DNA of 64,000 nucleotides from Bernardetia sp. ABR2-2B (GCF_037126435.1 NZ_CP147020.1:1779293-1843292); one strand, 5' to 3'; positions 26,249 to 26,301 are shown, numbered from the stretch's first letter. A program made the numbers and translations. The notes: generated by a model from the letters alone, not told the origin.

Positions 26249-26301
26249 CTAGCCTTTGTTGGTGTTTTAGCGAAGCGACACCAACAAATACACGTATAAA
26301 A
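26249..26301. repeat. 53-bp dispersed repeat containing the TTTGTTGGTGT...ACACCAACAAA hairpin (copy A)
   Basis: CTAGCCTTTGTTGGTGTTTTAGCGAAGCGACACCAACAAATACACGTATAAAA. Matches the reverse complement of 60641-60693 with 2 mismatches. Confidence 0.9.

Follow-up and report, generated by a model that had tools for sequence, protein, structure and literature searches.

The hairpins dispersed through a 64,000-nucleotide stretch of the Bernardetia sp. ABR2-2B genome (hereafter the window, numbered from its first letter) are very probably REP elements, the cognate DNA of the Bacteroidota-specific TnpA_REP/RAYT subclass 2.6 (Bertels group 5). Given that RAYT genes elsewhere are flanked by such hairpins, that the encoded proteins carry the motifs of this subclass, and that a Runella entry in Table S1 of Quentin et al. 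matches, we regard the window hairpins as REPs, a long-loop variant of a known system. The REP unit has four parts: an RCC foot left unpaired at the 5′ side, an 11-bp stem in which the outermost pair can covary, a loop with internal structure (TTTA + GC-GNA-GC + G), and a 3′ tail specific to each lineage. An earlier note on this DNA had offered RNA-stability elements, recombination sites and miniature mobile elements as readings. Of these, the mobile element is the one backed by the RAYT link, by insertion polymorphism and by flanking duplications, and the term recombination site is also apt in a sense. The system was already known at the family level, and Bernardetia is hereby added to the lineages with subclass 2.6 REPs.

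Three long-loop hairpins had been reported in the window, and all were found where they had been placed (the 26249, 49392, and 60641 regions). Copy 1 (26249-26307, plus strand; 68.2 bits with a covariance model; ssDNA ΔG −9.8, z −3.6) reads CTAGCC-T-TTGTTGGTGT-TTTAGCGAAGCG-ACACCAACAA-A, with the foot CTAGCC at 26249-26254, an 11-bp stem at 26255-26265 / 26278-26288, and a 12-nt loop. Its tail, ATACACGTATAAAACCAATT, is common to copy 3, and it lies between the divergent ORFs 25633-26160 (−) and 26525-27655 (+). Copy 2 (49390-49430, plus strand; 55 bits) reads AATGCC-G-TTGTTGGTGT-TTTATCGATAGTG-ACACCAACAA-T; the foot AATGCC occupies 49390-49395, the 10-bp stem 49397-49406 / 49420-49429, and a closing G.T pair 49396/49430. 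As described earlier, this copy directly follows a gene, its foot beginning on the first base past the TAA stop of ORF 46078-49389, which encodes an LRR/SprB/CHU_C (T9SS) protein, although its loop is 13 nt long and not 14 nt as first counted. Copy 3 is represented by a full inserted unit of 72 nt (60622-60693, minus strand; 66.8 bits), comprising the foot CTAGCC plus closing T (60693-60687), a 32-nt hairpin core (60686-60655), and a 33-nt tail (60654-60622). With its stem at 60654-60664 / 60677-60687 and the loop TTTAGCGTAGCG, it is the same unit as copy 1 on the minus strand, and it is located between cobT (60792-61841, −) and a DUF2141 gene (60151-60582, −), in sense orientation to both.

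The stems are kept while the loops differ (TTTAGCGAAGCG, TTTATCGATAGTG, and TTTAGCGTAGCG in copies 1, 2, and 3, the last read on its sense strand), and the 53-bp pair 26249-26301 and 60641-60693 is identical at 51 of 53 positions (96%) in inverted orientation, both as previously described; the likeness between copies 1 and 3 extends to 60 nt at 93%. All three copies scored 55-68 bits with the covariance model (E ≤1e-13), folding as ssDNA gave ΔG values of −8.9 to −9.8 kcal/mol (z −3.6 to −4.1), and the 11-bp stem with its 12-13-nt loop fits the short stem-loop palindrome (20-40 nt) by which REPs are recognised. Allowing one mismatch at most, the 11-mer stem was found 14 times in the window compared to 2.1 ± 1.4 times in shuffled sequences, and the motif is therefore present above chance. 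Direct reading confirmed that no T-tract lies downstream of any copy (the post-stem sequences are ATACACGTAT, TCTCCATCTA, and ATACACATAT, in place of the T/U tract that follows the G+C-rich stem of a terminator), and a terminator scan around copy 3 returned 0 sites. Since the T-tract is absent, the hairpins are not classical intrinsic terminators. Rfam gave no gathering-score match in the whole window and only noise around copy 3 (E ≥1.6), and a literature search with the stem sequence as text retrieved unrelated primers only. Directly 5′ of copy 1, at 26200-26239, AAATCCCAATACA...TGTATTGGGGTTT forms another palindrome, seemingly perfect, which is bordered on either side by A/T runs and so resembles a bidirectional terminator.

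The count of three copies in 64 kb proved too low, as two short-loop relatives bring the family in the window to at least five. One of them (37685-37722, minus strand; 17.3 bits with the covariance model) reads TTGCC-G-TTGTTGGT-ATCTCC-ACCAATGA-C and starts 3 nt past the stop of ORF 37726-38556 (−), in sense orientation. The other (43816-43853, minus strand; 18.4 bits), which is 92% identical to the first, lies between a histidine-kinase gene (43898-45823, −) and a LytTR regulator gene (43020-43805, −). The pair has the consensus TTGCC-RTTGTTGGT-ATCTCC-ACCAATGAY, and both members are sense to the upstream gene. In Pontibacter and Xanthocytophaga, RAYT genes are bordered by hairpins that have the foot and stem of 37685-37722 and a loop of 4 nt. 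All five window copies are intergenic. Other repeats are also present in the window: a tandem heptamer array, (GATTAGT)n with about 7 units, at 439-510; imperfect inverted relatives of this heptamer (TCACTAATCACTAA...) at the intergenic positions 12139-12187 and 24976-25033, which make up a second dispersed repeat motif; and a small palindrome, GGGTTT(C/T)TG(A/C)AAAACCC-TTAGGGTCT, at 5440-5486 and 35555-35588 in direct and inverted register, which may be a further hairpin-repeat family.

Outside the window, the hairpin is a widespread repeat. Bernardetia sp. ABR2-2B, with a genome of 5.3 Mb, belongs to the Cytophagales, and a scan for the exact stem (TTGTTGGTGT-N6-20-ACACCAACAA) in one genome per species recovered at least 120 loci (numbered with the prefix L), where chance would account for about 8 sites in the entire collection. 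Single relatives held at least 15-25 loci each. Among these at least 120 loci, about 90 from about 27 assemblies had the window-type unit, RCC foot + (G/T)TTGTTGGTGT + TTTAGCGNAGCG + ACACCAACAA(C/A). Carriers include Chitinophagaceae, other Bacteroidota, and Ignavibacteria, with most loci coming from the Cytophagales, i.e., from Bernardetia, Flexibacter, and Raineyaceae, alongside other members of this order. Among 87 distinct copies, the loop follows the pattern TTTA + G-C + G-N-A + G-C + G, in which N is free (A in 42, T in 28, C in 14, and G in 3 copies) and the neighboring bases are near-invariant; the core of this loop fits the d(GCGNAGC) type of mini-hairpin, which has a GNA triloop and is very stable. 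Covariation was scored on the closing pair, the ten inner pairs being fixed by the exact-stem collection of loci. This pair was GC in 50 copies, UA in 16, CG in 7, AU in 4, and unpaired in 9, with 27 double changes across four Watson-Crick types. The possibility raised in the earlier note, that only the window copies exist and that their stems lack compensatory variation, is thus contradicted by many copies in many genomes. The foot reads R-C-C in the same 87 copies (G 68/A 18, C 84, and C 82) and differs from the classical GT[AG]G. However, REPs of subclass 2.6 are without GT[AG]G according to Quentin et al. (PMC6006769), and the mismatch therefore excludes the classical groups, not subclass 2.6.

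The 10-bp outer stem TTGTTGGTGT/ACACCAACAA was also encountered in multi-copy elements of Firmicutes (L004, L069, and L111 from Virgibacillus oceani; L083 from Radiobacillus), Chloroflexi (L005, L032, and L116 from Oscillochloris), and Actinobacteria (L040, L059, L079, and L104 from Collinsella). Their inner stems are of another kind, longer and rich in G+C, and their conserved flanks are particular to them. The Virgibacillus/Radiobacillus, Oscillochloris, and Collinsella matches were treated as unrelated repeat families or as chance matches, although a distant REP/RAYT relationship is possible. In Ignavibacteria, an inverted variant, with a 6-bp inner stem (GTTAGC...GCTAAC) in place of the loop, accompanies the long-loop REP at a distance of about 40 nt. 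Such REPIN-like doublets, unlike the singlets of the window, are found in L039 (1154-1278 and 2339-2463), L053 (5970-6094), and L132 (about 4900-5100).

The link to RAYT came from the genes beside the hairpins. ORFs within 1.5 kb of hairpins were clustered, and the candidate protein was then sought by tblastn. Clustering yielded one recurrent small protein, an HUH/Y1 transposase of about 172 aa, and tblastn located it next to hairpins in L084, L120, L037, L001 (where it is frameshifted), and L095; no recurrent RT gene emerged from the clustering. In Pfam the protein matches Y1_Tnp, and among NCBIfam models REP_Tyr_transpos scored highest (64-72 bits, below its cutoff of 80), compared to 22-26 bits for transpos_IS200 (cutoff 55). 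We observed inverted REPs around the RAYT gene, plus on the left and minus on the right, in L084, L037, L001, L125, and L126, and in partial form in L120 and L095. L125 and L126 derive from the cultured species Pontibacter pudoricolor and Xanthocytophaga flava, respectively, and here the RAYT genes sit between inverted copies of GCC-GTTGTTGGTG-(4 nt)-CACCAACAAC, the short-loop form also seen in the two weak copies of the window. The arrangement of a RAYT gene between inverted REPs thus occurs in other genomes, while no RAYT gene was found within the 64-kb window and no Bernardetia protein appeared among the 120 RAYT homologues listed.

Alignment of the hairpin-associated proteins (172-177 aa) showed the motifs MPNH[IL]H and YIH[NQY]NP. 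The published signature of subclass 2.6 is NH[LIV]H / YIH[QN]NP with a length of about 179 aa, and its members are described as [quoted passage not shown] (PMC6006769); our proteins agree with this description in HUH motif, Y motif, length, and affiliation with the Bacteroidetes. Furthermore, TGATGCCGTTGTTGGTGTTATCACCAACAACC is given beside Runella slithyformis AEI49282.1 in Table S1 of Quentin et al. 2018 (PMC6006769). Homologues of the RAYT are common in Cytophagales (Pontibacter, Rufibacter, Siphonobacter, Xanthocytophaga, Arcicella), and several have been named "REP element-mobilizing transposase RayT" by JGI. A PDB search with a single RAYT sequence produced no match, and a PDB profile search gave a weak one to E. 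coli TnpA_REP (4ER8; E = 0.04). A decayed Y1 transposase gene of another type (PSHIH ... YIHHNPV) was noted in L019 (1205-1721, −) from Flexibacter sp. CG_4_10, a close relative of Bernardetia sp. ABR2-2B; its flanks are without this REP.

To look at the insertion anatomy, the left flank of each copy was aligned to its right flank, with a threshold set at the 99th percentile of mismatched-flank controls. Locus-specific flank-to-flank direct repeats exceeded this threshold in 29 of 130 copies, compared to 1.3 expected, and in 13 of these 29 the left repeat ends 6-8 nt before the stem. Flanking direct repeats of 19-61 nt accompany about 10% of the copies, copy 3 of the window among them, and about 90% have no detectable repeat. 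The duplications have one fixed junction, the 5′ one at 6-9 nt before the stem, and one variable junction, and the clean cases have the form X-[foot + hairpin + tail]-X, with X = 24-61 nt. The tail is constant per genome: it measures 33-34 nt both in the window and in ERR2094166 (a MAG), 27-28 nt in MFD03250.bin.2.105, 20 nt in L084, and 1 nt in L025. The repeat-bounded unit is asymmetric, with a foot of 6-8 nt and a tail of 1-65 nt, and has no terminal inverted repeats; by eye, no microhomology was seen between tail ends and the sequence before the duplication. In independent JGI metagenome loci, 2-3 canonical duplication cases were counted among 24 copies. Tandem arrays beside RAYT genes and elsewhere (L001, L061, L025) consist of nested [foot-hairpin-X] units that have the same fixed 5′ junction as the duplications and variable 3′ end points.

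Copy 3 is the clearest case in the window. A 24-nt direct repeat, AGTTTTGTATTATTTACTTTCTAT, lies on its tail side (60598-60621) and is identical at 24 of 24 positions to the sequence on its foot side (60694-60717); judged from sequence, this pair is a target duplication. Presence and absence of the REP could be observed directly at this orthologous site, as the cobT-DUF2141 site is without a REP in L121, L122, and L123 and contains a decayed REP in a fourth relative. The three REP-less relatives have a cobT about 86% identical and keep the cobT-DUF2141 synteny and a conserved upstream block. For copy 1, the foot-side repeat (26030-26079) falls in the 5′ coding part of the membrane-protein gene 25633-26160 (−), and the tail-side repeat (26296-26345) is a decayed duplicate of this same part, with 84% identity over 50 nt. 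A pseudogene fragment at 26296-26432 (−) corresponds to a decayed duplicate of the first ~45 codons of that gene, and by eye this pseudo-N-terminus remains colinear to about 26432, with the same 28-codon spacing before the FLSFSF motif and with stop codons. From this colinear, stop-ridden stretch, the duplication at copy 1 is probably at least 134 nt long, and probably old. An empty site for copy 1 was absent from the relatives, which share the thioesterase gene, not the membrane-protein gene, and no flanking direct repeat was found for copy 2. Among the fetched loci there were no orthologous filled/empty pairs; both sides carry the REP, as exact-stem collection would produce. REPs at orthologous intergenic sites of different species were seen in L052/L108, L074/L087, and L008/L117, with flanks 72-89% identical. 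Stems are identical in such pairs, and loops may differ fully (L008 vs L117); since both members were collected by exact stem, stem identity at these sites cannot be read as selection.

By analogy with known HUH/Y1 systems, we infer that the RAYT moves these REPs. The HUH/Y1 enzyme would recognise the folded single-stranded hairpin and its foot, as do E. coli TnpA_REP and the TnpA of IS200/IS605. It would cut near the foot, become linked to the 5′ phosphate, and transfer that end to a 3′-OH, and rejoining of the ends would leave the unit copied into new intergenic sites. The junctions of the flanking repeats predict a 5′ cut 6-7 nt before the stem and another at the end of the tail. The duplications could arise if a 3′-OH that has already copied X, e.g., on a nascent strand with a displaced flap, were joined to the RAYT-linked 5′ foot; retention of the displaced or parental strand beginning with X would then give X-REP-X at new sites, and the same reaction in cis on a resident REP would give nested [REP-X]n arrays. 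That subclass 2.6 REPs insert in this way, with long and variable target duplications (19 to >130 nt) and one junction at the 5′ cleavage site of the enzyme, is a tentative proposal which we consider possible but rather less likely than its opposite. The association of RAYT with duplications is without precedent: target duplications are not known to result from single-strand transposition by HUH/Y1 enzymes, IS200/IS605-type transposition makes none (PMC2817692), and the REP literature searched, including PMC3733652, PMC8266576, and PMC3116915, contains no mention of flanking duplications of REPs. A retroelement (SINE-like, TPRT) origin of the duplications was also considered, and was dropped on the RAYT association and the lack of a recurrent RT gene near hairpins.

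Should the proposal be correct, it would describe an HUH/Y1-mediated mode of mobility not described before and the first sequence footprint of REP dissemination, a process described as unresolved (PMC8266576). Approximately 1 in 10 copies bear the clean footprint of a locus-specific 19-61-nt duplication, and the arrays adjoining RAYT genes repeat the same junction. If this footprint stems from the RAYT reaction, it predicts the cut position, a dependence on a free 3′-OH, and a duplication length that reflects the size of the flap or gap, and it would make insertions in genomes easy to count and to date. From Cytophagales through other Bacteroidota to Ignavibacteria, the RCC foot and the GTTGTTGGTG stem are retained with almost no base changed, which is unusual because REPs normally differ between species.

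An alternative is that the hairpins are host cis-regulatory RNAs, either 3′-UTR stabilisers or terminators independent of a U-tract, conserved by function and not by mobility. Their gene context bears on this. Intergenic DNA contains 71 of the 75 copies that could be evaluated, and 64 of these 71 adjoin the 3′ end of a gene, which is the usual placement preference of REPs. The upstream gene is sense to the REP in 46 of the 71 copies (p = 0.017), as in 4 of the 5 window copies, and copy 2 begins directly after a stop codon; perfect stems at orthologous sites with flanks 72-84% identical also fit, although these pairs were ascertained by exact stem match. However, in 25 of the 71 copies the upstream gene runs antisense to the REP, 7 copies have divergent genes on their two sides, a T-tract and an Rfam match are both absent, and the RAYT flanking, the tandem arrays, and the flanking duplications are left unexplained. 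In addition, mismatches in diverged stems comprise 18 G.T and 17 A.C, a symmetry that gives no sign of one transcribed strand under selection; strand-specific (RNA) selection found no support in these numbers. We, therefore, consider a purely regulatory origin improbable. As a possible secondary function, an RNA role is compatible with the REP reading and not a true alternative to it; resident copies probably also serve as putative 3′-UTR hairpins. With respect to strand, the REP-sense strand was locally G-rich (positive GC skew) in 59 of 91 fetched genome and metagenome loci (p = 0.006), and on the 3.8-Mb contig CAVRCG010000004.1 the copies below 1.8 Mb are mostly plus and those above 2.1 Mb mostly minus. 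There may be a replication-strand bias, confounded with gene orientation, for which the GC skew of the window was uninformative.

Two further explanations involve other mobile elements. The hairpins could be MITEs or end fragments of a DDE insertion sequence with long variable target duplications, such as the IS4-family element beside copy 1. A few DDE insertion sequences, e.g., IS1634 and IS1549, do have long variable target duplications, and the DDE_Tnp_1 ORF 26525-27655 lies 175 nt from copy 1. This ORF (376 aa, matching Pfam DDE_Tnp_1) belongs to an IS4/IS5-type insertion sequence at 26476-27656, which has candidate imperfect inverted ends, is single-copy in the window, and may lie inside the decayed right-hand duplicate of copy 1. 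However, its own candidate inverted ends (26476-26493 / 27639-27656) exclude the hairpin, and among the clustered ORFs near hairpins a related DDE ORF was present in just one other locus (L022), whereas RAYT genes flanked by hairpins were present in five. The IS4-like transposase was accordingly rejected as the mobiliser of copy 1, as its ends leave the hairpin out and it does not recur beside hairpins. Moreover, a MITE is expected to have terminal inverted repeats and a short target duplication of fixed length, but the inserted unit (foot + hairpin + tail) is asymmetric, lacks such repeats, and has duplications ranging from 19 to at least 61 nt. We regard a DDE origin as very unlikely. Slightly less likely still is an origin of the hairpins from an autonomous IS200/IS605 element, as its ends or remnants (PATEs), and not as REPs of a domesticated RAYT. 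The protein does match Pfam Y1_Tnp and, weakly, NCBIfam transpos_IS200; one copy of its gene is frameshifted (L001), and L019 has a decayed Y1 gene. Nevertheless, the latter is of another type and has no hairpin flanks, the Y motif is YIH[NQ]NP and not of the IS200 Y...Q type (PMC6006769 Table 1), no tnpB was seen beside these genes, and the neighbors in L125 and L126 are ordinary host genes. The hairpins far outnumber the genes, occur alone and with one hairpin per unit in place of a hairpin at each of two ends, and are in some copies flanked by duplications. Subclass 2.6 REPs remain the preferred reading.

Among known systems, the closest to these REPs is that of Runella slithyformis AEI49282.1 and subclass 2.6 (PMC6006769), which has the same GCC foot, the same stem GTTGTTGGTG / CACCAACAAC, the same protein motifs, and the same inverted copies around a gene of ~172-179 aa, with further copies elsewhere in the genome. 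The window copies differ in their 12-13-nt structured loop and lineage-specific tail, compared to the 4-nt loop of Runella. The subclass 2.6 structures had been called only "atypical" and "identifiable by manual inspection", and their spread, loop, and duplications are undescribed in that work (PMC6006769). The REP/BIME elements of E. coli with their TnpA_REP (RAYT group 2, 4ER8) are likewise short extragenic palindromes with an unpaired 5′ tetranucleotide-like foot, a single-copy HUH/Y1 gene between inverted REPs, recognition as folded ssDNA (for the present family, by analogy), and a preference for gene 3′ ends. In contrast to these, the present foot is RCC and not GT[AG]G, the stem is AT-rich and without a bulge, the copies are mostly singlets or direct tandem arrays where BIMEs alternate, and the protein likeness is marginal (profile E = 0.04 to 4ER8).

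The REPINs of Pseudomonas fluorescens (RAYT group 3; PMC3116915) are of the same non-autonomous type, thought to be replicated by RAYT in trans, and also form tandem clusters. Inverted doublets about 40 nt apart as in REPINs were seen in the Ignavibacteria loci L039, L053, and L132, but the mobile unit in the window and in most Cytophagales loci, as delimited by flanking repeats, is a single hairpin with a tail and not a doublet. Target duplication is unmentioned for REPINs in PMC3116915. The GTAG- and CGTC-tagged REP superfamilies (Di Nocera et al. 2013, PMC3733652) share the unpaired tag at one end and the intergenic location between unidirectional or convergent genes, and CGTC repeats have been reported in Bacteroidetes and Chlorobi (PMC3733652). 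In CGTC repeats the stems are 8-9 bp and the loops 4-5 nt long, and no transposase is associated with them (PMC3733652 Table 1), whereas the present family has neither tag, an 11-bp stem, a 12-nt loop, and an associated RAYT. Finally, the "peel and paste" elements of the IS200/IS605 family (IS608, ISDra2) would, by analogy, share with our family the HUH/Y1 chemistry and the use of subterminal hairpins in ssDNA, and their cleavage sites, fixed a few nt from the hairpin foot, can be likened to the cut predicted here. Those elements encode their own transposase, possess a hairpin at both ends, and insert without duplicating the target (PMC2817692), whereas the single-hairpin unit described here is flanked in about 10% of copies by duplications of 19-61 nt.
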